Translations under genes and position numbers: made by a program
IMG/VR virus record: IMGVR_UViG_3300049020_000042
Span: 1 to 53,968 of that record
From: a virus
Lineage: Duplodnaviria > Caudoviricetes
Direction: 5' to 3' (one strand)
Length of the DNA: 53,968 nucleotides
Notes under the pieces: model-generated
What the model was told of the DNA's origin: nothing
Databases searched by the model: none
Seen by the model: the letters and a program-made list of their open reading frames with translations, nothing else
Shown: piece by piece, positions 7,001 to 50,362 of the stretch
Position numbering within the stretch: position 1 is the stretch's first letter
How the letters are laid out: every line of letters begins with the position of its first letter

Positions 7001-7363
7001 ATGGCCTTTCTCAATAAAGACGACATTCCAAAATCCAACTGGACACAAGCCAGAAAGAACGGATATTCGTTCACCAACGATAAAACCATCCTGCTCGATG
7101 GTTGGTATGCGTTAGCGTTGCGAGCTCATCTCATGCGAGAACAATCCACAGAAGGCCTGGGTGTGAATTGGTATAAGGCTCTGAACATTGCCAAATCAGA
7201 CAATGCTGGAACTGTCAAACGAAACAATCCGGAATTTCAATGGCCGAATGCGCCATGGGAGGTCGAGCCCATGAAGAGAGGTGATCCTGATCGGGTTACT
7301 TTCTTCTTAATCGAATTTGAGAACCCAGAAGATTTGATTACTTTCAGATTGAAGTATTTGTAA
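7001..7363 (+). CDS. hypothetical protein, C-terminal FExxxDxxxFKL-motif family
   Basis: Ends FLIEFENPEDLITFRLKYL; TATACT 6 nt before ATG 7001. Confidence 0.7.
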   Translation: MAFLNKDDIPKSNWTQARKNGYSFTNDKTILLDGWYALALRAHLMREQSTEGLGVNWYKALNIAKSDNAGTVKRNNPEFQWPNAPWEVEPMKRGDPDRVTFFLIEFENPEDLITFRLKYL

Positions 7364-7399
7364 ATTGGCTTTTGGTGTTGATCCAAGTAAAATACTCGG

Positions 7400-7867
7400 A
7401 TGACAATTCCAAAACTTATCTACACTCACGACAGCATGGCTCGTGATTTACATTCCATGTACCGCACAATGCACCTCGAGGGCTTTAAGCCTGATGTGGT
7501 GGTTGGTATCACTCGTGGTGGACTCATCCCCAGCGTTTACGTCAGCCATTACTTTGATGTTGATTTGGTAACAATCAACGTGAGCTTTCGAGACACGAAG
7601 GTTCTTGAGCCAACGACTGAAATCGAGGAACTGCTCAAAGCTGGCAGAACCATCTTGCTGGTTGACGACATTTGTGACAGCGGTGAAACCCTTGAATTCA
7701 TCTATAACCAGCTGCAACAAACGGTGCCTGATCGTCTTGATACACAAATGAAGACCGCGGTACTTATTCATAACGAAGGCTGCCAAACCTTCACGCCTGA
7801 GTATTCCGGTACTACAATCAATAAATCGGAACAAGACGTTTGGGTGTGCTTTCCTTGGGAACAGTAA
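7400..7867 (+). CDS. purine phosphoribosyltransferase (Gpt-like, type I PRTase)
   Basis: VGITRGGLIP, LLVDDICDSGET PRPP loop, WVCFPWE; TTGGCT-17-TAAAAT upstream. Confidence 0.9.
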   Translation: MTIPKLIYTHDSMARDLHSMYRTMHLEGFKPDVVVGITRGGLIPSVYVSHYFDVDLVTINVSFRDTKVLEPTTEIEELLKAGRTILLVDDICDSGETLEFIYNQLQQTVPDRLDTQMKTAVLIHNEGCQTFTPEYSGTTINKSEQDVWVCFPWEQ

Positions 7868-7875
7868 TCTACACA

Positions 7876-8517
7876 ATGTATCAGATACGAAACTTGATCA
7901 ATGACAAGCTCTATATCGGTTATACGAAACAAGAGCCCATCAGCTATATCAGGAATCATTTCCGAAGAGCAAGGCTTGGTGAAGATCCCAACAAGTTGCT
8001 CTTCAAAGCCATTTTGAAATATGGTGAAGATGCGTTTGAGGTGACTTTGATTGCACAAACCACTGAAAAGGCAAACGCAACGTATCTTGAGAGATTCTTT
8101 ATTGGTGATCGTAATAGCCATGCAGTGTCAGGACATGGGTACAATTTGACACTGGGTGGTGATGGCGGAGATACTAGTCAATCGCCGAACTATAAAGCTG
8201 GTATAGCTAAAAGAGATCTTCGAGGTGAAAAGAATGGCAACTGGGGTGGATTCTCTGAGGATCACAAGAAAAACCTGAGTGCCGCAAAAAGAGGAAAGAG
8301 ACCCAAGAGTTGTGATGTTTGGTCAAAAGCTGCTACTGGCAAAATTTACCTTCACGATGCAATAAAAATGATTGAGAAAAGAGTTCACCCTGATGAAGCC
8401 ACCCAATTCAAGAATAATGGCTTCGTTCTTGGGAGACTGAAGTTAGAATGTAAAATCTGTGGCAAATATGCTGACGTTTCGAACCTGAAGCGCCACCATA
8501 GACACGATGAACAATAA
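7876..8517 (+). mobile_element. free-standing GIY-YIG homing endonuclease
   Basis: YQIRNLINDKLYIGYT, GYNLTLGGDG and NUMOD3-like SEDHKKNLSAAKRGK. Confidence 0.85.
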
Positions 8518-8523
8518 GGATCA

Positions 8524-9552
8524 ATGATGGCAGAAAAACAATATCAATATTCCGAAATTTTCGGAAACACAATTCAGGGTGAAGGCCAATATACCGGTGT
8601 ACCAACCGTTTGGGTTCGCTTCTGGGGCTGTAACCTAAATTGCAACGGCTTCGGACAGACTGACCCCACCGACCCAAGCTCATGGATCTTGGATTATCAA
8701 ACGATTGATATTTCGTCCATCACCAAGATGGAAGATCTGCCAGTATTCAATCGCGGTTGTGATTCATCCTACAGCTGGTCGAAGAACTATGCTCACTTGG
8801 CCCACAAAGCCACTGCGGCCGAAATCTGCGATAAGCTGGAAGCGTTCATGAAGAACGAACACAATCCAGAAGGAAAGTTTCTCCACCCCAAGAGTAAGCA
8901 GTGGCAACACATGGCTTTTACTGGCGGTGAGCCCATGATGTCCCAAAATGCCATCGTGGACATCATGTTGGAATTCGCCAAGAGAAACAACGTCCCCAAG
9001 TATGTGACAGTTGAAACAAACGGCACCCAGAAAGCTCGTGACAAAATCAGTGACTACATCAGAGGTTACCCGGTAACTGATGATGCTCAAGTCGAATTGT
9101 TCAATCAAGATTTTGACTATGAGAAAAGCTTCTACATGGCTGGTAAGATTTGGATGAATTCAGAATCACTGATCGGTTTAACTCCTGAGCTGGAAGCTCT
9201 CAAGGGTGTTGAATGGTTCTGGTCAGTCAGTCCCAAGTTGTTCCTGAGTGGCGAAACATGGGAAGACGCAATCAAACCAGAAATCGTGGCATCATATAAA
9301 GAGCTCAGCAATGCTGGTCAACTCAAGTATGTGAGTGATGGTTCACAGCGTTCATGGGATGAAATCGAGAAAGCGACGGCATTGTTCCGTGAAGCTGGGG
9401 TGAACTGGAAAGTATGGGTGATGCCGGTCGGTGCCACTGTAGATGGTCAGAATTTGGTTGCAGCGAAGGTGACTGAAGAAGCGGTTGCTCGCGGTTATAA
9501 TGTTGCGGCAAGAGTTCACGCTTACATCTTCCAAAATATCATTGGCCGTTGA
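8524..9552 (+). CDS. queE: 7-carboxy-7-deazaguanine synthase (radical SAM)
   Basis: SEIFGNTIQGEG, RFWGCNLNC, GCDS, FTGGEP, VETNGT, SVSPKL and RVHAYIF. Confidence 0.93.
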   Translation: MMAEKQYQYSEIFGNTIQGEGQYTGVPTVWVRFWGCNLNCNGFGQTDPTDPSSWILDYQTIDISSITKMEDLPVFNRGCDSSYSWSKNYAHLAHKATAAEICDKLEAFMKNEHNPEGKFLHPKSKQWQHMAFTGGEPMMSQNAIVDIMLEFAKRNNVPKYVTVETNGTQKARDKISDYIRGYPVTDDAQVELFNQDFDYEKSFYMAGKIWMNSESLIGLTPELEALKGVEWFWSVSPKLFLSGETWEDAIKPEIVASYKELSNAGQLKYVSDGSQRSWDEIEKATALFREAGVNWKVWVMPVGATVDGQNLVAAKVTEEAVARGYNVAARVHAYIFQNIIGR

Positions 9553-9639
9553 TTTGTAAATCAATGTTCCCACTGTGAAATAACAGTGTAACCCTGGCTT
9601 CGTAATTTTTCTTCGACGACCACGTTCAAGGGCCCTAGA

Positions 9640-9828
9640 TTGAATTGGTCGAACAAAGTGATCATTCGAGTGCCTCATAAATTCTGCCAGAAAACACAAT
9701 ATTTTGATTGGTGGCGACTCTATCACACGTTGAAAGAGTTGAATCCTAACATTGTATATGGTGATGACATCATCATGGCATTCGATACCGAAATCGAAGC
9801 CGTGGAATTCAAATTGAAATATCTATGA
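9640..9828 (+). CDS. small protein, FExxxDxxxFKL-motif family
   Basis: Ends IMAFDTEIEAVEFKLKYL; start uncertain. Confidence 0.65.
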   Translation: MNWSNKVIIRVPHKFCQKTQYFDWWRLYHTLKELNPNIVYGDDIIMAFDTEIEAVEFKLKYL

Positions 9829-10109
9829 TTCATACCATCACAGACTCCAGATACTTAAAGTCACTGATCCATTTCAGATCGACCAATAACAAGATTTGGG
9901 TCGATCGGAGTGCTTATCATTTACAAGATGAAATCTTGTTGTGGGTGACGACTACTATCCCTGATGATTATCAGAGAATGTTTGCTTTTGGGTGTCAATC
10001 ATGGGAATTCAGCAGTCACGAAATTGCCATGGATTTCTATTTGCAATGTTTGCGTATATTCCATAAGAATGGCCTATTGGATCTTAGAAAGATGCGAATA
10101 TGCGGATAA
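9825..10109 (+). CDS. small protein, FExxxDxxxFKL-motif family
   Basis: WEFSSHEIAMDFYL; ATGA overlap. Confidence 0.65.
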   Translation: MIHTITDSRYLKSLIHFRSTNNKIWVDRSAYHLQDEILLWVTTTIPDDYQRMFAFGCQSWEFSSHEIAMDFYLQCLRIFHKNGLLDLRKMRICG

Positions 10110-10381
10110 AGGCAACAGTTGAGAACATGATTTTCGTCTCCAACTATCCCGGGAATTGGTTCACAGAACGATTTGTAACTAGTGATTCTATGTATGAATT
10201 CTTGGACGCAATTGAAATGATACCATCAGATATTGGTAAAGATTATCTGATGGGATACAACGGTAGAATCTGTGAGGGAACATTGCATGCGGTTAGTCCC
10301 TATGGTGAAGGTGTCTGGTTAGATTTTGAAACCAAGGGCGACATGATGCTGTTCGTGTTGAGTCATAGTGAACCCAGATAA
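10100..10381 (+). CDS. small protein, FExxxDxxxFKL-motif family
   Basis: VWLDFETKGDMMLFVL. Confidence 0.65.
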   Translation: MRIKATVENMIFVSNYPGNWFTERFVTSDSMYEFLDAIEMIPSDIGKDYLMGYNGRICEGTLHAVSPYGEGVWLDFETKGDMMLFVLSHSEPR

Positions 10382-10712
10382 CAGTATCGTCATCAGTTCC
10401 GAACATTTCAAGCTGAGTAGTTCAGTGTTGCGAATGCATTACGATAGAATAATTCCGCTAAAGGGTTTTATATCGAAATCAGGATCGTTTTGCTCAATGG
10501 ATGAATATCCGGCAAATCAAATCGTCATATCTATGGACCCCCAAGCCCAAGAAAGCCTACATGAAGAATTGATATCAGACCGGATTGTTGGTATCTTCTT
10601 GCAAGAGAACACCGGGATAGTGGTTGAATATGAGACCGAATCACAAGCATGTATGGCCGCATTGGAATTCAAGGAATATTTGAGAAATGAAAAAGAAACC
10701 AATCCTAAGTGA
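10368..10712 (+). CDS. small protein, divergent FExxxDxxxFKL-motif family
   Basis: IVVEYETESQACMAAL. Confidence 0.6.
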   Translation: MNPDNSIVISSEHFKLSSSVLRMHYDRIIPLKGFISKSGSFCSMDEYPANQIVISMDPQAQESLHEELISDRIVGIFLQENTGIVVEYETESQACMAALEFKEYLRNEKETNPK

Positions 10713-13739: not shown

Positions 13740-14193
13740 TTTGAAGAAGATCACCGAGAATAGCTGGTTGGCAACAACGAACGGTTCTCCGTTGGCAGTA
13801 GTTCATCGCTCTGAGCTGGGTTTTGAATACATGACTCCCGAGTCCATTCAGAAATTCGATACCCTGACCGCCATCAAGGAATATCTGGGTGGTAATGTCC
13901 AAGAGCAGATGATCGAAGCCACCACTGGTCTTGATACCACTGCCACGGAAACAATTGATGGCTTCCCCGTCAAGCATACCGGGATTTCCGTGGAACAAGC
14001 TGGCGAACGCCCCGTTTACGTGCGTGGCAAGACGCAACACGTTGCGGGGTACTGGTGTATCAAATTCAGTAAAAGGTGGGTTCCCAGCTATTGTCCACTT
14101 CTCCGAACCGTTGAGCAGTACCAGAGCACTGGTCCGTTCAAGGATCGGATGGGAATGATGGCTGAGCTTGGAGTGCTGAATAGACAAGTATGA
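13726..14193 (+). CDS. conserved hypothetical protein
   Basis: AGYWCIKF..W..SYCP..GPFK motif; coupled ORF. Confidence 0.7.
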   Translation: MANYNLKKITENSWLATTNGSPLAVVHRSELGFEYMTPESIQKFDTLTAIKEYLGGNVQEQMIEATTGLDTTATETIDGFPVKHTGISVEQAGERPVYVRGKTQHVAGYWCIKFSKRWVPSYCPLLRTVEQYQSTGPFKDRMGMMAELGVLNRQV

Positions 14194-14411
14194 GCTACAG
14201 AATCCGACCACCAGAGTCCTGGCTTGTTCGGTTCTTCAACTCAAGAACGTTTGAAGTTTCGACTAGAGTATCCCTCCCCAAAGAGATCGACACCAGAGAA
14301 TTACCGTATCTTCGGATAATCGAAATCATTGACTCCCGGGATGCGTGGTTGGAATTTGATAATGAAGAGCAAGCGATGATGTTCAAACTGGAACATTTCG
14401 ATCGCTCATAA
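14190..14411 (+). CDS. small protein, FExxxDxxxFKL-motif family
   Basis: AWLEFDNEEQAMMFKLEHF. Confidence 0.7.
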   Translation: MSYRIRPPESWLVRFFNSRTFEVSTRVSLPKEIDTRELPYLRIIEIIDSRDAWLEFDNEEQAMMFKLEHFDRS

Positions 14412-14918: not shown

Positions 14919-15230
14919 ATGTCAAGACCCAAACCAGTAGTGATCCTGAATCATACTGACAACAAGACATATAAGAGTGAGCAGATCCTGGCCTCAGACG
15001 CCATCTATGCGGTGTTTTACGACAACAAACCCATCAATCTGCGTTCTCTCAATAGCTTGGTGAATTACCCAGGACCAAAATATAAGAAAGTCAGCTTCTC
15101 GAATCCAGGCCACGCTTTTAACCTAGCGGAAAAGTTGAACAAACTTTTCAAAACTGATAAGTTTGATGTGTACAAACTCACCGTAGGTGAGAAAGTCCTC
15201 GAATACACGGATAACGGTCAGGGCGAATAA
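14919..15230 (+). CDS. conserved jumbo-phage hypothetical protein
   Basis: MSRPKP...GPKYKKVSFSNPGHAFNLA; GAGGT RBS; TAAATA at 14883. Confidence 0.8.
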   Translation: MSRPKPVVILNHTDNKTYKSEQILASDAIYAVFYDNKPINLRSLNSLVNYPGPKYKKVSFSNPGHAFNLAEKLNKLFKTDKFDVYKLTVGEKVLEYTDNGQGE

Positions 15231-15322: not shown

Positions 15323-15745
15323 ATGAGTGTACATCATAAGATCGCCGCTCTCATCATAGAGCTGGCAGAAAAACAACAACATCCTCTTAGGACTCTGATC
15401 ACAGGTGAAACACCCAGTGATGCGTGTCATCAGATCTTCTCCAGCTATAGAGGGGGAGCTACTTCAGGAAAAGGCCTTCGTCTGTCAGATGTTGGTCTGC
15501 AACTCATGAAGACCTTCTTTAAGTGTTATGAGATACCACTGCCTGGAGGGTACAAGATCACCGCGCCGCACCTCATATATCTAGACAGAATCGCTGAGAT
15601 GCCATATTGGTTGAACCATCAATACATTTCAGTCTTCGACTCTGATCTCGCGATGATGCTCCGATTGATGGATGGCAACCTGCAAAGTCTAGTAGACTCC
15701 CGGTACCGTCTAGATACTTCTGACGATTCAGCTATTACTAGATAG
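15323..15745 (+). CDS. conserved hypothetical protein
   Basis: GLRLSDVG, YLDR...PYW; C-terminal VFDSDLAMMLRL resembles the repeated motif family. Confidence 0.7.
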   Translation: MSVHHKIAALIIELAEKQQHPLRTLITGETPSDACHQIFSSYRGGATSGKGLRLSDVGLQLMKTFFKCYEIPLPGGYKITAPHLIYLDRIAEMPYWLNHQYISVFDSDLAMMLRLMDGNLQSLVDSRYRLDTSDDSAITR

Positions 15746-15951
15746 AGCGAGTCAAGGCACTTTACGCCGCGGAATTGAAAGTGTTTGTTTTCTGCTATTC
15801 GCCAACTGGTAGTCATTGTTACAATTTTTTTTCACACTTTTCTGAACAATACGCCAAATTTCAGTTATAGTACACCCTGTGAGCAGATAGAGAGTTCAAC
15901 AAGCTGCTAACAACAAACCGCCCGTAATTGAAATATTCAAGGAGTGAATAC

Positions 15952-17094
15952 ATGTCGACTAAGAAGAATACCGCACGCATCGAAACTCTGGTCATGAAGC
16001 CCAGTGAAGTTTCCAAGGTCATCCAGCATTTTGCCTCCATGCAAAAGCAACGTTCCCTGTTCATCTGGGGTCCCCCAGGTATCTCGAAGTCCAGCGTGAT
16101 CGCACAAGTAGCCAAGGAACTGGGTTACGACTTCGTTGACGTCCGCCTGTCCCAAATGGACCCAACCGACCTGCGCGGTATTCCTCACCCTGTGAAGGAA
16201 ATCGACGAGAAGACCGGCAAGGAAGTTTCCGGCATGCGTTGGTCCGCTCCCCTGGTTCTCCCACGTGATCCCAAGGCTAAGGCATTCATCCTGCTTGATG
16301 AATTCAACTCGGCCGCCCCAAGCGTGCAAGCTGGTGCGTATCAGCTGATCCTGGACCGCAAGCTGGGCGAGTACACGGTTCCAGAAGGTTGCGTGATCAT
16401 CGCAGCTGGTAACCGTGAAAACGACAAGGGCATCACGTTCCGTATGCCCACTCCAATCGCAAACCGCTTCGTTCACATCGAAATGAAGCACGACTTCGAC
16501 GACTGGCAGCGTTGGGCTCTGAACGCGAACGTTGACCAATATGTGGTTGGTTTCCTGAGCGCTTTCAAGCACGAACTGTTCAACTTCGACGCAAACTCCG
16601 CAAGCCGTGGCTTCCAAACGCCCCGCACTTGGGAATTCGTTAGCGACATTCTGCCCGGCTCTGAAAAGCTTCCAGAACTGGTCCTGATGGGTCTGGTCGC
16701 TGGTTGTGTGGGTGATGCTGCTGCTGCCCAATTCATGGAATACCGCAAGAATGCTGCTGATCTGCCAGCAAGCTCGGACATCCTGAACGGCAAGGTTACC
16801 AAGCTGAAGCGCAACGACGTCAGCCTGTGCTACGCTCTGACGACCGCACTGTGCTACGAACTGCGTGACAACTACGTTGAAGTGGAACGCAACGGCAAGA
16901 AGGCCGCTGACCACGAAAACTGGCTCAAGCAAGCGAACAACTTCATCGGCTTCATGCTGGAAAACTTCAACCCCGAAGTTTGCATCATGGGCGCAAAGAC
17001 CGCGCTGAGCGTGTTCCGTCTGCGCTTTGAAGCCAAGAAGATGCCCAACTTCGACACTTTCACGAAGCAGTACAAAGACCTCATCATGAACTGA
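15952..17094 (+). CDS. MoxR-family AAA+ ATPase
   Basis: Walker A GPPGISKS, Walker B ILLDE, AAGN, NRF and TPRTW; AAGGAG RBS before ATG 15952. Confidence 0.92.
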   Translation: MSTKKNTARIETLVMKPSEVSKVIQHFASMQKQRSLFIWGPPGISKSSVIAQVAKELGYDFVDVRLSQMDPTDLRGIPHPVKEIDEKTGKEVSGMRWSAPLVLPRDPKAKAFILLDEFNSAAPSVQAGAYQLILDRKLGEYTVPEGCVIIAAGNRENDKGITFRMPTPIANRFVHIEMKHDFDDWQRWALNANVDQYVVGFLSAFKHELFNFDANSASRGFQTPRTWEFVSDILPGSEKLPELVLMGLVAGCVGDAAAAQFMEYRKNAADLPASSDILNGKVTKLKRNDVSLCYALTTALCYELRDNYVEVERNGKKAADHENWLKQANNFIGFMLENFNPEVCIMGAKTALSVFRLRFEAKKMPNFDTFTKQYKDLIMN

Positions 17095-17511: not shown

Positions 17512-18798
17512 ATGTCCACCCTTAGCTCCCCATCCAATCTGAACCTCAATGATGAAGTGGTTCATGCCATCGTGGCAGCTCGCGTCAAGCTGCTCCTGGA
17601 AAAGCCGTTCTTCGGTAACTTGGCAACTCGCCTGATCCTCAAAGAGGCGGATGGTTGGTGCAAAACCGCAGCAACTGATGGCCGTCACCTGTATTACAAC
17701 CGAGAATTCATCAAGGGTCTGACGCAAGCTCAACTCCTGTTCCTGGTTGGTCACGAAGTGCTGCATTGCGTGTACGATCACTTGGGCCGCCGTGGTCAAC
17801 GTGACCCCAAGATCTGGAACATGGCGAATGACTACATCGTCAATGACACGCTGGTGAAGGAAGGCGTGGGCAAGATGCCTGAAGGCGGTTTGCTGGACAA
17901 CAAATACAACGACACGATGACTTCTGAAGAAGTCTACGAAATCCTGAAGAAGAACAGCGTCACGATCAAGATGCCTCTCGACCAGCATTTGGATGCGGCC
18001 GGTGACAGCAAGGGTGATGATGACGGTGATGGTAGTGGTGACGGTGACGGTGGCCAGCCCAAGAAAATGGGCAGCGGCAGCGGCGGCAAAACTGTTGATG
18101 TCACGGTCATGGGCAAGGACGGCCCACCCAAGCTGACTGAAGACGATCTGAACAAGATTCGTACTGAAATTCGCACCGCAACGATCCAGGCAGCACAAAC
18201 TGTTGGCGCTGGTAAGGTCCCCGCAGGCGTGCGTCGCATGATCGAAGAGCTGACCAGCCCCAAGATGGACTGGCGCACTCTCCTGGACTCGCACATCAAG
18301 AGCTCCATCAAGGACGACTACACGTTTGCCAAGGTGAACCGTCGTAGCTGGTCTCTGGGTGCATTCCTCCCCGGCCAGGATTACCTGGAAACCGTGGAAG
18401 TTGCTGTGGCGGTTGATACGTCGGGCTCCATGACTGACGAAATGCTGCGTGATATCCTGGGTGAAGTAAAGGGCATCATGGAAACTTTCCAGGACTTCAA
18501 GCTGACCTTGTGGACGTTTGACACCCAGGTGTACAACCCCAAGGAATTCACCAGTCACAACCTGGATGAACTTCTGCAGTACGATCCCAAGGGTGGTGGT
18601 GGTACGGACTTTGACGTCAACTTCGAGTTCATGAAGGAAAACGGTCTGGAGCCACATCGCTTTGTGATGTTCACTGACGGTTACCCATGTGGTAGCTGGG
18701 GTGATGAAAACTACACTGACACGTTGTTCGTGATTCACGGCAACACCAGCATCGTGGCTCCGTTTGGTATCACGGCATACTACGACGACGCCAAGTAA
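17512..18798 (+). CDS. zincin-like metallopeptidase + vWA protein (DUF2201-type MoxR partner)
   Basis: TAATDG, HEVLH (HExxH), Gly/Asp linker, MIDAS DTSGS, GGGTDF and FTDG. Confidence 0.92.
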   Translation: MSTLSSPSNLNLNDEVVHAIVAARVKLLLEKPFFGNLATRLILKEADGWCKTAATDGRHLYYNREFIKGLTQAQLLFLVGHEVLHCVYDHLGRRGQRDPKIWNMANDYIVNDTLVKEGVGKMPEGGLLDNKYNDTMTSEEVYEILKKNSVTIKMPLDQHLDAAGDSKGDDDGDGSGDGDGGQPKKMGSGSGGKTVDVTVMGKDGPPKLTEDDLNKIRTEIRTATIQAAQTVGAGKVPAGVRRMIEELTSPKMDWRTLLDSHIKSSIKDDYTFAKVNRRSWSLGAFLPGQDYLETVEVAVAVDTSGSMTDEMLRDILGEVKGIMETFQDFKLTLWTFDTQVYNPKEFTSHNLDELLQYDPKGGGGTDFDVNFEFMKENGLEPHRFVMFTDGYPCGSWGDENYTDTLFVIHGNTSIVAPFGITAYYDDAK

Positions 18799-19368: not shown

Positions 19369-19716
19369 ATGATTCATCAAACAGTTAGATTCACTGGCTT
19401 GACAGTGAGATCAGAACTTCTGTGCTCCAAGCTGGGCAACAGAAAATCCCAAGGACCAATACCAGCATCTTGGTGTCGCATTTCAATCCCGGATGCGCCC
19501 CAAGATGGTGCATCCATGGATCGCCTAGATCGATGGGTAACGGAAACAATGCAAGGAAGATGGGGAGTTTACCAGCCAGAATACGGCGCGGTGATCTTCG
19601 GAGCTTCCGGAAAAATCGTCATAGCATTTGAAAATGACGACGACGCACTCATGTTCAAGCTGATGGACGGTGGGGCGATTTGGAAAGACATGGCAGACAC
19701 AAAAGAAGGATATTGA
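19369..19716 (+). CDS. small protein, FExxxDxxxFKL-motif family
   Basis: [10 protein letters not shown]...[16 protein letters not shown]. Confidence 0.75.
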
Positions 19717-19718
19717 AA

Positions 19719-20297
19719 ATGATGGTTCCGATGATTCTCGAAAACACTGGTCGCGGTGAACGTGCGATGGATCTCTACAGCAAGATGCTGATGGAGCGCG
19801 TCATCTTCCTAAACGGTCCAGTGGAAGACAACATGGCAAATCTTATTTGCGCACAGCTCCTGTATCTGGAGTCCGTGGACCCAAGTAAGGATATCTCGAT
19901 GTACATCAACTCACCAGGTGGTTCAGTTAACGCTGGTCTGGCTATTCGTGATACGATGAACTTCATCAAATGCGACGTTTCTACTGTCTGCATGGGCATG
20001 GCCGCTTCCATGGGGGCCTTGCTGCTGAGTTCAGGCACCAAGGGCAAGCGGTTTGCGCTCCCAGACGCTAGAATCATGATCCACCAAGTGTCATCCGGTA
20101 CTCGTGGTACCGTTATGGATCAGGAAATTCAACTGAAAGAAAGCGTTACATTGAATGATCGCCTGCATCATATCATGACCGAAGCTTGCGGTCAGTCCTT
20201 TGAAAAGGTCAAGAACGATTGCTCGCGTGACTATTTTATGTCGGCAGCTGAAACTGTCACTTACGGTCTCATTGACCGCGTTATTGACAAGCGTTGA
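19719..20297 (+). CDS. clpP: ATP-dependent Clp protease proteolytic subunit
   Basis: YINSPGG, AASMG (Ser), IMIHQ (His), RDYFM (Asp) and YGLID. Confidence 0.96.
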
Positions 20298-20320: not shown

Positions 20321-20563
20321 ATGAATCAAATTGAGTATAGGGCTGGAAGTGAAACACCCATGCCCCATATTATCAGAGTCTCACTGAAGGGCTCGGATCA
20401 AACTCGTTCTGATTTAATCACTAGGTGGATAGAATTCTGGTGTCAAACCAACTGCGAAGCTGGTTGGCACCTTCGTGAATACGAGACCCACGTGGAAATA
20501 GGATTCGAGGACTTGAGTGAACTAGTTCACTTCAAGTTGAGCCCCGAATGTGATTCAAATTGA
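20321..20563 (+). CDS. small protein, FExxxDxxxFKL-motif family
   Basis: WCQTNCEAGW...VEIGFEDLSELVHFKL. Confidence 0.75.
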   Translation: MNQIEYRAGSETPMPHIIRVSLKGSDQTRSDLITRWIEFWCQTNCEAGWHLREYETHVEIGFEDLSELVHFKLSPECDSN

Positions 20564-37933: not shown

Positions 37934-38509
37934 TTATGAAATCTGCCAGTTGGTAGATACCGGTATAAGTGCATTCAGGGCTTTTTCTTCATCAGCGATT
38001 GGTACGATTTTTTCGTCAAAGCTCAGTAGCTTGATTCTAGCCACAACTTCTGGATCACGCACCCAGATCCATTCATCAACTTTCTTGTAATGTCTTGAGC
38101 TGTAGCCCAACCCCTTCAAGGATTCTCTGAATTCTGGGAAGACTGAGTTCTTGATGTTGACGGCGTAGTTGTATGGCTCGGTGATTGATTTGTCACTCTT
38201 TATCTTCTTATAGCTTCTGAGGAATTGAACACCGTATTGTTTGCCTAGATATTCATGGAACCGGTAAACCATCACGCAATGTTTTGCCGTTTGGGTTTCC
38301 TTTTCCTGAATTATGATTTCGTATTCAACGACCTCGGCTGTTTTAATCCAGTCACTGACGTCATATTTCATCTTGAATTGCGAATCAATTCGCAATCCCG
38401 CGTCCTCGTAAGAGGAAAATACTGTTCCGGATTCAGAGAAGCTGGAACTATAACCGTTCCAGAATAGACCAGTTGCTGTGTTTTTTATTTTGAATTGTTT
38501 TTGTCTCAT
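37934..38509 (-). CDS. hypothetical protein, divergent motif-family C-terminus
   Basis: WIWVRDPEVVARIKLL. Confidence 0.65.
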   Translation of the reverse strand: MRQKQFKIKNTATGLFWNGYSSSFSESGTVFSSYEDAGLRIDSQFKMKYDVSDWIKTAEVVEYEIIIQEKETQTAKHCVMVYRFHEYLGKQYGVQFLRSYKKIKSDKSITEPYNYAVNIKNSVFPEFRESLKGLGYSSRHYKKVDEWIWVRDPEVVARIKLLSFDEKIVPIADEEKALNALIPVSTNWQIS

Positions 38510-38754
38510 GCGTCATCTGAACCACCCGAGAACGGGTCTCCATATAACCACATGCGAAACATAATCAATTCAGATTCTAGTTCAAACGTTACTAGAAACT
38601 CCTTGATTTCGACTTCCACGTAAGACCAACCAGACGTATTGGTCTCCAGCCACTTTGTGATAATTTGGAGGCATTCCGAGTCACCGGCACTAAATTTGCA
38701 CCAGTAAAAGGTTCCCTTTACCTGCCTCCATTGTGCGTAACTCAAGCATGCCAT
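38506..38754 (-). CDS. small protein, FExxxDxxxFKL-motif family
   Basis: WLETNTSGW...FLVTFELESELIMFRM. Confidence 0.7.
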   Translation of the reverse strand: MACLSYAQWRQVKGTFYWCKFSAGDSECLQIITKWLETNTSGWSYVEVEIKEFLVTFELESELIMFRMWLYGDPFSGGSDDA

Positions 38755-43578: not shown

Positions 43579-43812
43579 ATGGCAATCAAACAAATCAGCG
43601 AACACGTTCTTCGAATAACTGAGAAGGATTGGGATCGGATTCGTTTTGCGTTCAATCAGCAACAAACCATCAAGCAGGTCAAACCACCTAGTGGTGATCT
43701 TTCCAAATTCTTAGATGTTGACGATGCCGAAATCCTGTTTGGTTCGATACTCGAAGTGTACATCGAGGATCCAGTCAGGATGTTGCAATTTAAATTTGAT
43801 TGGTCGGCATAG
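43579..43812 (+). CDS. small protein, FExxxDxxxFKL-motif family
   Basis: VYIEDPVRMLQFKFDW. Confidence 0.65.
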   Translation: MAIKQISEHVLRITEKDWDRIRFAFNQQQTIKQVKPPSGDLSKFLDVDDAEILFGSILEVYIEDPVRMLQFKFDWSA

Positions 43813-44156: not shown

Positions 44157-44684
44157 ATGAGTCTGTATAGCGTTGATGTTGAAGCTGATGGCCCTTGTTC
44201 TGGCCTCTACAGTATGGTTCAGGTTGGGGCTATCAAGGTACAACCAGCTCTGGATCAGACATTCTTTTCCACATTGAAGCCAATCACTGACAACTGGATT
44301 GATGAAGCTCTTGCTTCTTGCAATCTCACTCGTGAAGTAACGTTGGCGTACGACGACCCGCAGACGGCTATGATCGCCTTCCGGGACTACGTGTTGAACA
44401 CCACGGTTGGGAAACCAGTATTCATCAGTGATAATCCAGGTTTCGACTGGCAATTTGTCAACTACTACTTCCACTATTATCTGGGTGACAATCCCTTCGG
44501 ATTCAGTTCACGTCGTATCGGTGATGTTTTTAGTGGTTTGACTAACAATTGGCGTGGTGCCTCGAGATTCAAGAAGTTCAGAACGTTCCCCCATACCCAC
44601 AATGCATTGGATGACGCGAAGGGGAATGCGTCAGCAATCCTGGGGTTTGCTGAAAAATACAAACTTGAAATTGATTATGCCTGA
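44157..44684 (+). CDS. DEDDh 3'-5' exonuclease
   Basis: SVDVEADG, DNPGFDW and HTHNALDDA. Confidence 0.9.
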   Translation: MSLYSVDVEADGPCSGLYSMVQVGAIKVQPALDQTFFSTLKPITDNWIDEALASCNLTREVTLAYDDPQTAMIAFRDYVLNTTVGKPVFISDNPGFDWQFVNYYFHYYLGDNPFGFSSRRIGDVFSGLTNNWRGASRFKKFRTFPHTHNALDDAKGNASAILGFAEKYKLEIDYA

Positions 44685-45000
44685 CTTTCCGGACATGATA
44701 CAATTCAACAATGACTTGTATATCAGTGCCAGCAACGTGCAAAACTTCATTGACGCGTATTATGGCGTTGATGTGATTCCCAAGGCATCATCGGAAACAA
44801 TGAGTGTTTTGGTGACACCTGAGATCAGATTTCATCTATATACCGTATGGAACAACCCAAAAATAAAAAGAGGTTCCACTACTGAAATCTGTCGGTTAGA
44901 GTTCCTTAACCCCAGCAACCTAATTATCCTCAAGCTGGCACAATCTGATTATATCAAAGATTACGATAATTTACCAGATCACTTCATAGGCCCAGAATGA
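44677..45000 (+). CDS. small protein, motif family
   Basis: RLEFLNPSNLIILKL; start at ATG 44677. Confidence 0.6.
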   Translation: MPDFPDMIQFNNDLYISASNVQNFIDAYYGVDVIPKASSETMSVLVTPEIRFHLYTVWNNPKIKRGSTTEICRLEFLNPSNLIILKLAQSDYIKDYDNLPDHFIGPE

Positions 45001-45221
45001 AATTCAAAGTAATGGAAGGCGAGTCTATCGTCATGACTAAGGATTTCTTTCTGGAGTTGCTCTCTGAATTTGACACAGACAGTCAACACAATGGCGCCGT
45101 ACAGGAATTCAAAAATCGATACGGTGCGAAAAAGGTAACAGTGGCTACATGTTTGGTGTTACTGGAATTCAATTCTCCGGAAGAAGCTGTTCAATTTAGA
45201 TTGGGTTTACCAAATGGATGA
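44997..45221 (+). CDS. small protein, FExxxDxxxFKL-motif family
   Basis: VLLEFNSPEEAVQFRL. Confidence 0.7.
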   Translation: MKFKVMEGESIVMTKDFFLELLSEFDTDSQHNGAVQEFKNRYGAKKVTVATCLVLLEFNSPEEAVQFRLGLPNG

Positions 45222-45531
45222 TTTAGAAATCGAAGAACACATTCAGAGGTGTTTGGTACATAGTCGATGGACTGGTAGAGGAAGTTTGATTGCACCATCT
45301 GGTCTTTTGGATTTCATGATCTATAAACAGACTCGTGGATTCCCCAAACATTCACCGGTCCTTGAGTTCAGGGAAATTTTTGGTCTTAGGGCATCTCGCT
45401 GGGTGGACAATTCAATTCCATGTGTGATCATTAATCTTTCATCAGATGATGAAGCTATGTTATTCTTCCTGGCAACGGGAGCTAGAAAACCAAATGCGAA
45501 AAAAGATCGAAGATCCAAGCAAACCTCATAA
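45214..45531 (+). CDS. small protein, motif family
   Basis: IINLSSDDEAMLFFL. Confidence 0.6.
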   Translation: MDDLEIEEHIQRCLVHSRWTGRGSLIAPSGLLDFMIYKQTRGFPKHSPVLEFREIFGLRASRWVDNSIPCVIINLSSDDEAMLFFLATGARKPNAKKDRRSKQTS

Positions 45532-45892
45532 AAATTGGGTTCATGCCGCCCAATCCGGCCTTCCAATCAAAATGACGGTTCGGGTTGCATTAGATCTCAC
45601 CCAATTGAAAGAGATTGGCCTCGATGATCTGGTAGTTGCTAAAAATTGGATTTTTGCCCATCAGATAAAATCGAAAATCACCGACATCGTGTACAAAGAA
45701 CTCAATGAGTTTGTGGGAGAGCGAAAGGTTGCGTGGAGGACACTAGCAAACCGACCAGAAAACAACGAAGTTGATTATTTGACTATTTTCATGGCAGATG
45801 ATGATTGGATGGTCACAGCCAAACTCAATGGTGCTATAGTGGCTTCATTACCAAGAACTTTTGAAAAGCTGGAAATCCAAAATGACCAATAA
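45494..45892 (+). CDS. hypothetical protein, DDW subtype of motif family
   Basis: LTIFMADDDWMVTAKLNG. Confidence 0.6.
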   Translation: MRKKIEDPSKPHKNWVHAAQSGLPIKMTVRVALDLTQLKEIGLDDLVVAKNWIFAHQIKSKITDIVYKELNEFVGERKVAWRTLANRPENNEVDYLTIFMADDDWMVTAKLNGAIVASLPRTFEKLEIQNDQ

Positions 45893-46298
45893 GACGCCAA
45901 TTCTGTATATCCTGATGCGTACTGATATGGCCAGTATGAACCCCGGTAAAGCGGTGGCACAGGGATCGCATGCTGCAAACCAGATGCAAACCAGAGTTGC
46001 ATCTGCCACCCAATATATCCAAGACTGTTTCAATGAATGGCAAAACCAAGGTGCTTCTGGGTTCGGTACTGCCATCTGTCTGAGCGTAGACGATAGAATG
46101 ATGCGTCGCGTTATGGACGGTCTCGCGATTTCGGTCATGGCTCCTGACTTTGCTCTGGGTGGAATTGTCCGCGATCCCACTTACCCATTACGCGATGGTG
46201 AAGTAACCCACCTCATCCCAGTTGATACCTGTGCCTACTTGTTTGGGTATAAGGAAGACATTGGGTACCTTGTATCAACTCTGAGCTTGATGTCATGA
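45882..46298 (+). CDS. peptidyl-tRNA hydrolase 2-like protein
   Basis: LYILMRTD..MNPGKAVAQGSHAA, VRDPT and TC. Confidence 0.7.
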   Translation: MTNKTPILYILMRTDMASMNPGKAVAQGSHAANQMQTRVASATQYIQDCFNEWQNQGASGFGTAICLSVDDRMMRRVMDGLAISVMAPDFALGGIVRDPTYPLRDGEVTHLIPVDTCAYLFGYKEDIGYLVSTLSLMS

Positions 46299-46792
46299 GT
46301 GAAATCAAAAGCGCCGTCCGCAAGGTTCGATCTTTCAAAGATCTGATCTATTGGTACCTGGCTCCATCGACAGCCAAGGTCAAGACTCGAATCAGCGATG
46401 GTGAGTCTGCGTTCAGTAACTCTGCGGCTTACATCATGCGGCGCATTTGGTGGGCATACGCGGATCCAAAATACCAAGTTGCATTCATCATCCCCACCAA
46501 CGACTTAATTCTTTCCTTCTTCTCCAAGTCCGCTCCCATGCGGGATGTTCCTGAAGAGATAAAGAAGTCCCTTGTGGACATTATCGACCACATGGGTACT
46601 CGTGGTGAGGACTGGGAAATTATTGATTTTGGTGATCCATTCTTCCATGCATTGGTGACCACATCGGATGATTGGTTGGTAATGGCCCGACTGAGTGGGT
46701 CAAATATGAATATTATCAGAACGTTGTTTAACAACTACATCGAGTACAAACCAGGTTCTGAAATTGCGAAGAGTCGAAAGTCACGCAAATGA
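46295..46792 (+). CDS. hypothetical protein, DDW subtype of motif family
   Basis: ALVTTSDDWLVMARLSG. Confidence 0.65.
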   Translation: MSEIKSAVRKVRSFKDLIYWYLAPSTAKVKTRISDGESAFSNSAAYIMRRIWWAYADPKYQVAFIIPTNDLILSFFSKSAPMRDVPEEIKKSLVDIIDHMGTRGEDWEIIDFGDPFFHALVTTSDDWLVMARLSGSNMNIIRTLFNNYIEYKPGSEIAKSRKSRK

Positions 46793-46801
46793 TGTTTGAG
46801 G

Positions 46802-46926
46802 CGAGTTCCTCAAAATCTACCTGGAGTTTTACGACATCACTTCATCGTTTTTACTACATCGCCTCACCTTTTACGACATATTCGTGAAGAATAGGTAAAG
46901 ATACGTGTGAAAGATTCGTGAAGAAT
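46802..46926. repeat. dispersed element, copy 2
   Basis: Same 24-bp core as 27678-27701; ATTCGTGAAGAAT at 46880 and 46914. Confidence 0.85.
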
Positions 46927-46933
46927 TACCCTA

Positions 46934-47266
46934 ATGTCAAATACACCTAACACCAAAAGATCTCAAAGAATAGGTACATTCACATTAGAGAAATACGATC
47001 TACGTAGAGTAACGGAACTGTTTGACGAACCTCTACCAGAATACGTATGGGAGACTGCACTAGCTAAGACACCAGAACTCGTGGAGTGGTTGGAGACCTA
47101 TGCTTCCAGTAGGTACCACTTCACAACCAGAGGAATAGGCAGTGTTGCTATTATACTCCGTGGACCAAAGCCAATTTACTTACAAATGGAATCAGAGCAG
47201 GATGTACTTCTTCTACATCTCACCATGGGTGATTCCTTGATTCCAAAAGAATGGATTAATCGATGA
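46934..47266 (+). CDS. small protein, motif family
   Basis: WLETYASSRY...IYLQMESEQDVLLLHL. Confidence 0.65.
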   Translation: MSNTPNTKRSQRIGTFTLEKYDLRRVTELFDEPLPEYVWETALAKTPELVEWLETYASSRYHFTTRGIGSVAIILRGPKPIYLQMESEQDVLLLHLTMGDSLIPKEWINR

Positions 47267-47481: not shown

Positions 47482-47486
47482 CATTC

Positions 47487-48556: not shown

Positions 48557-49057
48557 ATGAACCAACCAATCAACTACAAATTTGTATCCACGAAAGAATA
48601 CGTGGATGCCTATCCTGTCGCCTATCGCCAGTGGCGTGCTGACAGTCATTGCAATCTCATCCATGGATATTCCTTCTCAATGAAGTTTTATTTCGGGACC
48701 AACGACCTCGATGTTCGTAACTGGGCAGCCGACTATGGCGGCCTCAAGGAACTCAAAGGCATCCTGAACGACATGTTTGATCACCGCCTACTGGTTGCTG
48801 AGGATGATCCTGAGCTGGCCTTCTACAAGGAAATGGAAGCTCGCAAGCTGGCAAAGCTGACGATCTTGCCACGACTGGGTTGCGAGGGTCTGGCCGATAT
48901 GCTGTACCGTTATGTGAACTCGGTATACATTCCAGATATGTGGGGCCAAGCTGAAGCAGATCGTCTGTGGTGCTTCCGTGTTGAAGTAAGGGAAACCCAA
49001 GCCAACATGGCCTATCGTGAAGGCCATCGTGAATGGAATGAGGACTTGATTGGATGA
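48557..49057 (+). CDS. queD: 6-carboxy-5,6,7,8-tetrahydropterin synthase
   Basis: SHCNLIHGY, DYGGLK, FDHRLL, GCE and VEVRET. Confidence 0.9.
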   Translation: MNQPINYKFVSTKEYVDAYPVAYRQWRADSHCNLIHGYSFSMKFYFGTNDLDVRNWAADYGGLKELKGILNDMFDHRLLVAEDDPELAFYKEMEARKLAKLTILPRLGCEGLADMLYRYVNSVYIPDMWGQAEADRLWCFRVEVRETQANMAYREGHREWNEDLIG

Positions 49058-49239
49058 AAGATATCAAGGAGAAACTCACCTATGAGGAATGGCGGGCCAC
49101 CATCAAAGTCGATGCATCAGACGAGTACGTGAATGACGTGTTCGCCCTGCATGGAATAGACTTTGAAGCCCAGGTTGAACAATCCCTCAAGGGTGAATAC
49201 CTGATCTATTGTCGGGAATTTGAAGACTTCGACATGTAA
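49054..49239 (+). CDS. small acidic hypothetical protein
   Basis: ATGA-coupled to queD; GAGGA RBS. Confidence 0.6.
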   Translation: MKDIKEKLTYEEWRATIKVDASDEYVNDVFALHGIDFEAQVEQSLKGEYLIYCREFEDFDM

Positions 49240-49248
49240 CCCCAATCT

Positions 49249-49656
49249 TCATTTCTTTTCCGCTCTTCTCTTTTCCGCCCTGGCACCAGCCTCCAGGGCG
49301 GTTTTTGCCTTATGGCATGGAACGCATAACGTTTGGAGATTGGGTAATTGCCAAAACGTTAGATCACCCTGAGCTTCAATCAATGGCTGGATGTGATCCA
49401 GATGCCAACCGTGATTCCGTCTCTCACATTGAGTTCCGCAGGAACGACAGACTCCCTTATCTCTTTTCCACACAACCTTTCTGGCCTCACTGGGCCAGAA
49501 CATAAGTTGATATTCCTTAACGCAAGCTGGATGCCATCTTGCTCTTGATTCCTTGCCAGTCCTAGTAAGACCAATGGCTTGATTGCACCAACGGCATGTT
49601 CCAACCGGAGTGCAATCAAAGTGAGGGGGAAGTGGTGGTTTTCTATGAGCGCTCAT
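49249..49656 (-). CDS. HNH endonuclease with N-terminal Zn finger
   Basis: CRWC, RDKGVCRSCG, LDHIQP and NLQTLCVPCHKAKT. Confidence 0.88.
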   Translation of the reverse strand: MSAHRKPPLPPHFDCTPVGTCRWCNQAIGLTRTGKESRARWHPACVKEYQLMFWPSEARKVVWKRDKGVCRSCGTQCERRNHGWHLDHIQPLIEAQGDLTFWQLPNLQTLCVPCHKAKTALEAGARAEKRRAEKK

Positions 49657-49676
49657 TGGGGATATTTATCCCCAAT
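49655..49676 (-). promoter_or_regulatory. hairpin with late promoter TAAATA, covering the start codon
   Basis: ATTGGGGATAAATATCCCCAAT(G) on - strand. Confidence 0.6.
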
Positions 49677-49679
49677 TTA

Positions 49680-49970
49680 TCACATGAAATCTTTAGGATC
49701 AAGTCCGCTACTGCGCCACACAATTTCAGCAGCGAATTGCCCTTGATGTGTAGCTCGACGAAGTCGTTCCTGGAACGTAATAGGTGGTGAACCTTTGGGA
49801 TCCTGATAGGCTTCCATCGAACCAAGCAGAATCCTATCATGGAATGCACGGCCTTTCTGATCTTCTGCTTTTCGACGGATTCTGGCTTTGTCCACTGCAT
49901 TAAGTGGCGGTAGCCCGAGATCATTTCTATTAGCTTCTACGAAGCGTTGGAGTTGAAGTTTGGGGTGCAT
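49680..49970 (-). CDS. hypothetical protein
   Basis: AAGGA RBS; 96 aa. Confidence 0.55.
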   Translation of the reverse strand: MHPKLQLQRFVEANRNDLGLPPLNAVDKARIRRKAEDQKGRAFHDRILLGSMEAYQDPKGSPPITFQERLRRATHQGQFAAEIVWRSSGLDPKDFM

Positions 49971-50005
49971 AATTCATCCTTTCTAGATGAATGATAGCAT
50001 GAAAT

Positions 50006-50362
50006 TCATTTAACCAAATCAGATTTCATAATCTTCTTTATGATGCCTCGATACTGATGCGGATGTTCGCCACTAAGACTCAAGAACATCTCCCAGTTGT
50101 CATTGGTAGTCCAGAGGTTCATGAACTTTTCACCGTTCATGTCAATCACATATTCATTGGGATCATAGATTGATCCCAAGTATGCCAAGAACTTCAGCAT
50201 GAACATTTGGGGAATCTTAGGAAATGCTGCTGGTGACGTTCTATTCTTGGAGTCACGATAGAACGGGGTTGAATCCACTCCATCACTGCATCGAGTCCTG
50301 GCGATCTGAAAGTAGAAATTCATACCAGGACGGTCAACAAACGGGTTATCACTGATTCTCAT
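50006..50362 (-). CDS. hypothetical protein, DDW subtype of motif family
   Basis: NLWTTNDNWEMFLSLSG. Confidence 0.6.
   Translation of the reverse strand: MRISDNPFVDRPGMNFYFQIARTRCSDGVDSTPFYRDSKNRTSPAAFPKIPQMFMLKFLAYLGSIYDPNEYVIDMNGEKFMNLWTTNDNWEMFLSLSGEHPHQYRGIIKKIMKSDLVK

Follow-up and report, generated by a model that had tools for sequence, protein, structure and literature searches.

A highly diverged family of small phage proteins with a strand-helix signature, expanded in a lineage of jumbo myophages

The viral record IMGVR_UViG_3300049020_000042 (Caudoviricetes), all 53,968 bases of which constitute the window analyzed here, encodes a set of small, highly diverged proteins that share a strand-helix motif, h-x-F-[ED]-x-x-x-D-A-x-x-F-K-L (h, hydrophobic residue), near the C-terminus. 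We consider it probable that these proteins represent an unannotated phage domain family for which the motif is a fold signature and which has undergone a lineage-specific expansion into a diversified repertoire of protein binders. As judged from profile statistics, the motif is evidently real, and by the same measures six open reading frames (ORFs) of the window are assigned to the family as firm members and three to four as probable members, with nine others unproven or unsupported. The window, about 12% of one genome by the CheckV estimate, is a 54-kilobase (kb) fragment of a jumbo myophage similar to Atu_ph07 and Phosso: the identities of its tail sheath protein to the counterparts in Sinorhizobium phage Phosso (50%), Agrobacterium phage Atu_ph07 (49%) and Pseudomonas phage PA5oct (40%) place it in the same group.

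Motif statistics and family membership

The motif is present in the translated ORFs at the positions given below, 13 of which (starting at 6995/7001, 9640, 10100, 14190, 19369, 20321, 38506, 44997, 10368, 43579, 44677, 45214 and 46934) align without gaps across 22 residues. A hidden Markov model (HMM) built from these 13 sequences scores them at 20.3-31.1 bits, compared with at most 3.9 bits for the other 605 six-frame window ORFs of at least 40 amino acids (aa; 618 ORFs in all). Because scoring an HMM on its own training ORFs is circular, the search was repeated in the leave-one-out mode. Eight of the 13 ORFs (6995/7001, 9640, 10100, 14190, 19369, 20321, 38506 and 44997) still outscored all 605 background ORFs, with scores reached by no more than 2 of 4750 shuffled proteins. 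The remaining five (10368, 43579, 44677, 45214 and 46934) failed, their scores being reached by 53 to 1197 of the 4750 shuffles. BLASTP similarity between members is weak throughout (best E-value 0.028); nevertheless, the alignments land on the motif.

Profiles built exclusively from proteins outside the window provided independent tests of membership. Using an alignment (hereafter A4) that combined the products of 19369, 20321 and 38506 with one database protein and with their orthologs encoded on two related contigs as the query against 1.84 billion representative proteins, we identified 379 clusters with E ≤ 0.001, including 31 with E ≤ 1e-10. Almost all of the 150 listed proteins are 78-127 aa long and 143 are within 60-130 aa; two long ones, P0015 (with a tandem repeat) and P0139 (with Ig-like domains), look unrelated to the family. 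The 143 outside homologs split into 91 proteins similar to 19369 (subfamily 1), 51 similar to 20321 (subfamily 2) and one similar to 38506. When the profile of these 143 proteins was run over the 618 window ORFs, the originally predicted candidates took 12 of the top 14 positions (hypergeometric p = 8e-19), and 9 of the top 11 after removal of the three seed ORFs (p = 2e-14). A second outside-only profile, derived from 35 paralogs of two other phages, was then iterated over the window and the genome of a relative (G001, 415 kb) together with an equal number of shuffled decoys; it admitted 4 window ORFs, 71 G001 ORFs and none of the 6498 decoys. The window-level E-values for the iterated profile were 3e-13 for 20321, 5e-13 for 19369, 3e-8 for 46934, 9e-8 for 38506, 7e-5 for 7001, 2.5e-4 for 14190, 0.03 for 9825, 0.3 for 9640 and 0.7 for both 44997 and 10100. 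The noise level of these scans is marked by an antisense ORF that is not a candidate (1640-1789, minus strand), with E-values of 0.015-0.036. The original prediction had counted approximately 19 proteins that share the motif; under the leave-one-out and outside-profile tests, this number comes down to the six firm and three to four probable members.

Predicted fold and conserved positions

An AlphaFold2 model of the 19369 protein, computed with 92 homologs, reached a predicted local distance difference test (pLDDT) value of 88.1 and a predicted TM-score of 0.73; among the divergent members, this is the only one for which a confident model was obtained. The DSSP assignment yields the order β1 (residues 36-43), α1 (49-60, the tryptophan-containing helix noticed originally), β2 (65-68), β3 (81-87) and α2 (90-98), preceded by an N-terminal hairpin (strands 5-8 and 11-14); the model also includes a short helix and a short last helix (101-107). 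The motif maps to β3 and α2 (DDDALMFKL), that is, to positions 19609..19662 on the plus strand as calculated from the start of the ORF. According to the model, the motif thus corresponds to the C-terminal third of a domain of about 60 residues with a ferredoxin-like α + β arrangement. The notion of a constant docking module separable from the rest of the protein is not supported by this model, in which the motif is part of a single compact domain.

A Foldseek search of the Protein Data Bank (PDB) with the 19369 model returned nothing with E ≤ 0.001 (best E-value 0.24). The top VIA-align match is the ACT domain of TyrA (5uyy_A; Z = 6.6, 68 residues, root mean square deviation 2.4), followed by many RNA recognition motif (RRM) domains with Z of 5.2-5.9, the best 50 matches aligning over 62-81 residues; by the aligner's own note, Z-scores of 5.2-6.6 fall in the range where the likeness may reflect nothing beyond a common arrangement. 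The resemblance of the modeled domain to the ACT and RRM folds therefore appears to be generic only. A BFVD fold search likewise found nothing with E ≤ 0.001, and its best matches (E-values 0.03-0.07) are uncharacterized phage proteins including one each from Atu_ph07 and PA5oct.

The alignment of 75 members defines a family signature that starts with E-[IV]-x-x-W-[CL]-x-x-N-x-x-G-x-[WY], spanning α1 and the beginning of β2, and, after a variable loop, ends with h-x-F at the end of β3 and x-x-x-x-D-A-x-[LM]-F-K-[LM]-x-W in α2, the stop codon usually coming immediately after this helix. The upstream helix W-[CLV]-x-x-[NT]...[WY] that had been noticed in several of the window proteins is borne out by this alignment, with W present in 100% of the members, N in 68% and W, Y or F at the start of β2 in 75%. 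The β3-α2 columns are occupied by F (91%), D (71%), A (79%), F (97%), K (91%), L or M (91%) and W or F (91%). The conserved hydrophobic residues alternate along the strand and recur at helical spacing, and the D-A pair opens α2; from this periodicity, we infer that the conserved residues form the core and the helix cap, and that the motif is a fold signature rather than a detachable docking peptide. Two β3 positions predicted to face outward (35 and 37 of the alignment) show no residue at a frequency above 16%. Strand β1 lies outside the conserved profile, except in two subfamilies that occupy fixed genomic positions (see below).

Members and candidates in the window

The 115-aa subfamily 1 protein encoded at 19369..19716 (plus strand) directly after the vWA-metallopeptidase gene is detected by the outside-only profiles with E-values of 1e-29 and 2e-13, and the 80-aa subfamily 2 protein at 20321..20563 (plus), directly after ClpP, with 1.5e-17 and 8e-13. 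The 82-aa protein at 38506..38754 (minus) is recognized with E-values of 7e-8 and 1e-5 and has a leave-one-out score of 8.0 bits, where the background ORFs reach at most 4.6. In the 110-aa protein at 46934..47266 (plus), which the decoy-controlled iterated profile admitted (E-value 3e-8; 1e-3 with profile 2), the C-terminal motif is degenerate, with L-H-L in place of F-K-L, and does not by itself pass the leave-one-out test; the α1 part of the protein is present, and the region from the α1 tryptophan to β2 is clear. The protein at 7001..7363 (plus), 120 aa when read from the ATG (the ORF opens with TTG at 6995), carries an N-terminal extension and combines a leave-one-out score of 17.9 bits with E-values of 1e-3, 8.5e-4 and 7e-5. 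The 73-aa protein at 14190..14411 (plus) has the highest leave-one-out score of the 13, 23.3 bits, and E-values of 0.018, 0.008 and 2.5e-4 with the three outside profiles; a word-based search for its homologs returned just this protein itself and hence no ortholog.

Three further ORFs are probable members. The 62-aa protein at 9640..9828 (plus, TTG start), the first gene of an array that extends to 10712, has E-values of 0.003, 0.04 and 0.27 and scores 9.5 bits against a background maximum of 3.8; the 93-aa protein at 10100..10381 (plus) has an E-value of 0.053 with the 143-protein profile (1.6 and 0.7 with the other two) and 11.1 bits; and the 74-aa protein at 44997..45221 (plus), within a second array at 44677-47266, has E-values of 0.059, 0.57 and 0.69 and 14.9 bits. 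None of the 4750 shuffles reached the score of any of the three. The 94-aa protein at 9825..10109 (plus; E-values 0.35, 0.024 and 0.027) is a possible member, with the match confined to the region of the first helix: its motif-like stretch lies 20 aa short of the end, and the protein was not part of the training set and is absent among the 45 best matches of the motif HMM.

For four motif-like ORFs, all on the plus strand, membership is unproven: 10368..10712 (114 aa; leave-one-out score 1.8 bits, reached by 53 of 4750 shuffles; absent from the match lists of all three outside profiles), 43579..43812 (77 aa; −2.4 bits; E-value 0.77 with the 143-protein profile), 44677..45000 (107 aa; 0.4 bits; no match with the three outside profiles) and 45214..45531 (105 aa; 0.8 bits; E-value 0.24 with the 143-protein profile). 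The same applies to the three ORFs described originally as a DDW subtype, namely 45494..45892 (plus), 46295..46792 (plus) and 50006..50362 (minus). These show weak mutual similarity, with BLASTP matches of 46295 to 45494 (E-value 0.015) and to 50006 (0.034), but their link to the family is unproven: in an hhalign comparison of the trio with subfamily 1, the motif region is aligned with an E-value of 0.049 and a probability of 1.1%. The AlphaFold2 model from the three-sequence alignment is unusable (pLDDT 37.1), and the Atlas model of 46295 (pLDDT 0.34) has no usable structural match.

Two ORFs that had been listed as weak instances of the motif have no profile support. The 191-aa protein at 37934..38509 (minus) has a best E-value of 0.37 (profile 2) and is otherwise absent from the match lists. 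The protein encoded at 15323..15745 (plus), upstream of the MoxR gene, was considered as a member for its ...VFDSDLAMMLRLMDG end and was ruled out, since it falls into another conserved family (phrog_15638, E-value 8.6e-5) and has its own type of strand-helix end; it scores 2.7 bits with the motif HMM and is not matched by any of the three outside family profiles. It has orthologs in L002 (a locus of G001) and in the related locus L003, and the Phosso gene at this position has, by eye, a similar C-terminal end. The protein and its counterparts end in ...[IVL]F[EDK]....[LKV]L..G, with a turn one residue shorter than that of the family motif. Another small gene upstream of MoxR (14919-15230) is kept in synteny, with 79% identity in G001 and 60-65% in the loci L003-L009; the Phosso genes at the places of 14919 and 15323 look alike by eye.

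The 19369 protein carries the full set of signature residues (the α1 tryptophan, the F that closes β3, D-A and F-[KR]-[LM]), whereas 20321 and 38506 have E-L for D-A; the C-terminal part of the signature is present in 14190, 7001, 9640 and 44997. The isoelectric point is below 7 for 12 of the 14 motif-type window proteins. Both tandem arrays (9640-10712 and 44677-47266) are there, their ORFs adjoining one another, but some of these ORFs lack support as members. The description of the N-terminal parts as unrelated is partly right: they do vary, but each of the short proteins consists of a single domain from end to end. The second array also encompasses, between two DDW-type ORFs, a gene for a PTH2-like protein (peptidyl-tRNA hydrolase 2; 45861-46298); five other viral loci around PTH2-like genes contain neither a family member nor an ortholog of the array genes.

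Expansion and patchy distribution among jumbo phages

In searches with A4 at the genome level, G001 yielded 36 matches with E ≤ 1, 25 of these with E ≤ 1e-3, and Phosso, which yielded 23 and 13, respectively, carries at least 13 copies; with E ≤ 0.01, there is one match in Atu_ph07, two in PA5oct and none in fENko-Kae01 and the genomes G002 and G003, although for the latter two the prefilter missed weak subfamily 1 ORFs that are visible in the locus comparison. In the window itself, the A4 search detected just the three seed ORFs. The paralog profile, run over the entire G001 genome, matched 74 of 5880 ORFs with E ≤ 0.01, containing 76 non-overlapping domains that are encoded on both strands and form 42 clusters, the largest with 8 copies. 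The charge of these domains varies (35 of the 74 are acidic and 27 basic), and the N-terminal parts differ in both length and sequence among the members. The comparison of these genomes shows a family that has undergone a lineage-specific expansion, with copies scattered in small tandem arrays and a patchy distribution. Outside the core signature, the sequences are extremely divergent. A word-based homolog search with 19369 found one protein, the same search with 31 G001 paralogs found 15, all unnamed or "hypothetical" and without Pfam domains, and a tblastn search of the cultured phages with one G001 paralog found no match.

Two of the longer proteins in G001 deserve mention. A stop-to-stop frame on the minus strand (L049:5035-5610; G001 252035-252610) contains the family domain at residues 46-119 and runs on into the first 45 positions of the profile of the T4 major capsid protein Gp23 (E-value 1.1e-17); in the Atlas, 13% of the members of the nearest cluster with Pfam domains also have Gp23. 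This frame could be a fusion, a piece of a capsid gene or an artefact of its stop-to-stop definition. A 358-aa protein (L002:16620-17696), encoded immediately before a run of four family members, has a motif-like stretch around residue 90, as judged by eye, and a C-terminal GatB/YqeY domain (E-value 1.3e-10). A Pfam scan of 26 longer family proteins revealed no informative fusion.

The family is missing from the resources that we searched. Pfam has no family for the members (96 window proteins, 92 homologs and further candidates scanned); PHROGs has none for the 19 candidates, apart from phrog_15638 for 15323 and otherwise weak matches with E ≤ 1, and none with E ≤ 0.001 for the members from PA5oct, Atu_ph07 and Phosso. 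A sequence search of the PDB with A4 found no relative (best E-value 0.55). The public names of the homologs are "hypothetical protein" or none, and the nearest Atlas clusters are viral and unnamed. A literature search for the strings FKLRW, FKMRW, LFKLFW, LFKLRW and FKLxW found none, and occurrences of MFKL were unrelated; publications retrieved on MoxR, vWA and ClpP of jumbo phages, on Phosso and Sinorhizobium jumbo phages, and on multigene families of jumbo phages contained nothing on the family. Neither a small partner gene nor a family of this kind is mentioned in the passages on MoxR-vWA, ClpP and ClpS in PMC7824862, although the supplements of that article might list such families, and the word "paralog" does not occur in the available text of the Sinorhizobium jumbo phage paper PMC11242549.

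Association with MoxR-vWA and ClpP genes

Two lineages of the family occupy conserved positions. In the window, genes for a MoxR-type AAA+ ATPase (15928..17094, plus; Pfam AAA, AAA_5 and bpMoxR) and a metallopeptidase-vWA protein (17512..18798, plus; DUF2201_N, E-value 1.6e-41, and DUF2201, 3.7e-15) precede the subfamily 1 gene, and the phage ClpP gene (19680..20297, plus; CLP_protease, 2.2e-75) lies between the two fixed-position members. An ORF resembling subfamily 1 is located directly after the vWA-metallopeptidase gene in all nine related loci, with E-values from 1.7e-31 in close relatives to 0.013-0.027 in the most distant ones; Phosso also has a subfamily 1 member directly after vWA, and Atu_ph07 has an unscored 94-aa gene at this place. 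ClpP followed by subfamily 2 orthologs is found in the window, L001 and L002, and the PA5oct members gp210 and gp209 are encoded just downstream of gp212, a homolog of the window ClpP (L034:1850-2521; 43% identity, E-value 3e-58). The annotation calls this protein a head maturation protease and adds a mass spectrometry note, which gp209 and gp210 lack. Gene order and similarity show one orthologous lineage that invariably comes after the MoxR/vWA-metallopeptidase pair and another one beside ClpP in four lineages. In Phosso, the two fixed-position members are separated by an acetyltransferase gene instead of the ClpP gene, which lies elsewhere; ClpP homologs are encoded in the window, G001, Phosso, Atu_ph07 and PA5oct alike. 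In G001, a 325-aa P-loop protein (L002:12525-13502; GEPGTGKT, by eye) is encoded between subfamily 1 and ClpP, with no counterpart at this place in the window.

Positional correspondence extends to one of the arrays. The 8-copy array of G001 lies downstream of the ortholog of window gene 42794, and 43579 along with the array 44677-47266 lie downstream of 42794, that is, at the matching position in the window.

Possible functions and alternative explanations

A diversified set of protein binders seems to be the likeliest function of this family. The conserved residues would hold the fold together, and the variable face of the sheet, the loops and the N-terminal extensions would carry specificity, so that the proteins would act as binders of different targets. 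They may accordingly be pictured as small and mostly acidic proteins that each bind another protein of the host or of the phage, making up a fast-evolving host-takeover, counter-defence or adaptor set that probably would have grown from members working with the MoxR-vWA and ClpP proteostasis genes of the phage. That these are related, highly diverged small proteins forming a diversified repertoire had been predicted from the window alone, and the 76 copies in G001 agree with it. Several observations nevertheless weigh against this interpretation. The expansion figures come from relatives, with only 6-10 copies in the window, and several of the window candidates rest on the 22-residue motif alone, which could be a convergent strand-turn-helix. 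The assignment of the core draws on sequence periodicity rather than coordinates, and a pure fold signature explains neither the polar K at 91% nor the near-fixed distance to the C-terminus (47 of the 65 G001 copies with a recognizable FK[LM] end 3 or 4 residues beyond it), both of which would suit the end of a docking helix. Finally, ClpP is far from the fixed-position members in Phosso and Atu_ph07, and there is no ClpP nearby in the loci L003-L009, so that the link to ClpP is not general.

The conserved lysine and the constant distance to the stop codon are what one would expect if the C-terminal helix (F-K-L/M-x-W) docked all paralogs onto ClpP with its unfoldase, or onto MoxR with the vWA-metallopeptidase, and the variable parts delivered host proteins, by analogy with the ankyrin/F-box-like proteins of poxviruses. 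N-terminal parts that vary in length and sequence, the two fixed-position lineages that flank ClpP and follow MoxR-vWA, and the presence of ClpP in all five genomes named above would also fit such docking. We nonetheless regard it as rather unlikely: in the model, the helix is packed into a compact domain, the conserved positions are mostly hydrophobic, the short members (62-82 aa) lack a distinct part for targeting, and ClpP is not adjacent in Phosso, Atu_ph07 and L003-L009. In its far-reaching form, that of a substrate-adaptor repertoire in which the invariant helix plugs dozens of paralogs into either machine and each set of variable surfaces and N-terminal parts binds a host protein of its own, the proposal is still more doubtful. 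If it were true, the phage would reprogram host proteolysis on a scale that, to our knowledge, is so far known just from eukaryotic viruses with F-box-like adaptor families. RNA binding, suggested originally by the similarity of the motif to the β3-α2 region of RRM, is unlikely, and a repertoire of cut-down RRMs in which the paralogs bind different host or phage RNAs is very improbable. Many RRMs are indeed among the best 50 structural matches, and there are weak Pfam similarities (RRM_Thc1 with an E-value of 0.16 for 14190, below the cut-off, and Tap-RNA_bind with 0.0078 for one of 92 members), translation-linked neighbors or fusions (the PTH2-like gene in the array and the L002 protein with the GatB/YqeY end) and a Caulobacter phage "peptidyl-tRNA hydrolase" among the weak BFVD matches. 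The Z-scores, however, are too low to tell true relatives from common arrangements, with an ACT domain scoring highest, Foldseek found nothing at its threshold, and a single match at 0.0078 among 92 scans is close to chance. RRMs carry outward-facing aromatic residues in RNP1 (β3) and RNP2 (β1); these motifs are absent here, and the outward-facing β3 positions 35 and 37 are variable. Furthermore, the fourth strand that follows α2 in the RRM is absent in the 19369 model, although the N-terminal hairpin of subfamily 1 might contribute strands, and is absent likewise in the G001 copies, 47 of 65 of which stop 3-4 residues past FK[LM]. The proteins of the window are mostly acidic, and the curated RRM profiles matched none of the 96 window proteins with E ≤ 0.01 and none of the 92 subfamily members. 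The similarity to RRM that was originally noticed thus holds for the topology of the fold and does not extend to RNP motifs or to a Pfam match.

A different kind of alternative concerns the weaker candidates (10368, 43579, 44677, 45214, the DDW trio, 15323, 37934 and perhaps 9640, 10100 and 44997), which might be unrelated proteins that converged on a generic strand-turn-helix with an acidic helix start. The failure of 5 of the 13 ORFs in the leave-one-out test, profile E-values of 0.2 or worse (or no match) for the weaker ORFs and the assignment of 15323 to another conserved family are compatible with convergence, and the pattern F-E-x-x-x-D-A is typical of the RRM β3-α2 junction and can therefore recur without common descent. 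We regard this as rather unlikely: the candidates as a group rank far above chance by the hypergeometric test, the weaker ORFs share arrays with supported members, and the array downstream of 42794 matches the position of eight clear members in G001.

Jumbo phages carry hundreds of genes without an assigned function, and a sizeable share of these is here gathered into one family (74 ORFs in 415 kb and 6-10 in 54 kb) which now has a confident fold model (19369), a simple signature and two conserved positions beside MoxR-vWA and ClpP. Its profile lets annotators assign many seemingly unique ORFs to one family. The fast multiplication and divergence make these proteins prime candidates for host-takeover or counter-defence roles, and the cultured, member-rich phage Phosso, with Sinorhizobium meliloti as the host, makes the family testable at the bench.

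Other features of the window

In addition to the 967-aa tail sheath protein, the Pfam scan identified a T4 gp15-like sheath stabilizer and two enzymes of nucleotide metabolism, dihydrofolate reductase and thymidylate synthase. GTP cyclohydrolase I (3405-4115), a radical-SAM protein (Fer4_12/Radical_SAM; 8524-9552), a PTPS/QueD-like protein (48557-49057) and a nucleoside 2-deoxyribosyltransferase-like protein (51512-51979), also recognized by Pfam, together suggest a base modification pathway of the 7-deazaguanine type. Four homing endonuclease-like genes are present, one of the GIY-YIG type and three of the HNH type, one HNH with NUMOD3 (7840-8517, 22533-23108, 40593-41198 and 49249-49656; Pfam). 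Inside the block of structural genes, the minus strand segment 29417-30698 encodes a protein with a TnsA-like endonuclease N-terminal domain (E-value 1e-20) followed by two adjacent DUF6934 paralogs. Long minus-strand open frames at 15937-17175 (412 aa) and 17380-18738 (452 aa) oppose the MoxR and vWA genes, in the region where the G+C content of the window is highest (0.50-0.52). Because the Pfam matches sit on the plus-strand frames, these two are shadow frames; they appear "conserved" in G001 by tblastn because the opposite strand is conserved.

Comparison with known systems

The closest counterparts come from cultured jumbo phages. The family profile detects PA5oct gp210 and gp209 (E-values 3e-6 and 1e-5), Phosso CDS 248 and 250 (6e-14 and 3e-10) and Atu_ph07 gp258 (0.002), which share with the window proteins the W...N...W helix, the F...A..FKL end and a MoxR-vWA or ClpP neighborhood. 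They are annotated just as "hypothetical" and thus add no function, and the copy number varies widely among these phages. With the RRM and ACT domains, the family shares the order β1-α1-β2-β3-α2, with the helices on one face of the sheet, and the sequence pattern at the β3-α2 junction. It differs in that the family model has no fourth strand after α2, and the proteins possess neither RNP motifs nor an apparent conserved ligand loop nor a match to the respective Pfam families; for ACT, there was none in the scans of the window, the candidates and the 92 members.

ClpS-type adaptors are small α/β proteins linked to Clp proteolysis, and we take the strand-N-D-D-helix pattern of the family to be loosely reminiscent of ClpS. 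The motif of the family, however, is at the C-terminal end rather than at the start of the core, and the Pfam scans of the window proteins, candidates and 92 members gave no match to ClpS. Adaptors of this type are encoded by some jumbo phages, according to the available text of PMC7824862. The same text describes a lineage-specific expansion in Bacillus phage G, in which a small zinc ribbon is present in about 35 copies (Iyer et al. 2021, PMC7824862). As in the present case, a single small domain was multiplied within one jumbo phage lineage, and its function was guessed in that account; the family described here differs in being an α + β domain without metal ligands and in reaching about twice that copy number in G001 (PMC7824862 for the phage G count). 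What we describe is, then, an unannotated family with a common α + β topology, and expansions of small domains that are specific to one jumbo phage lineage are a known kind of event.

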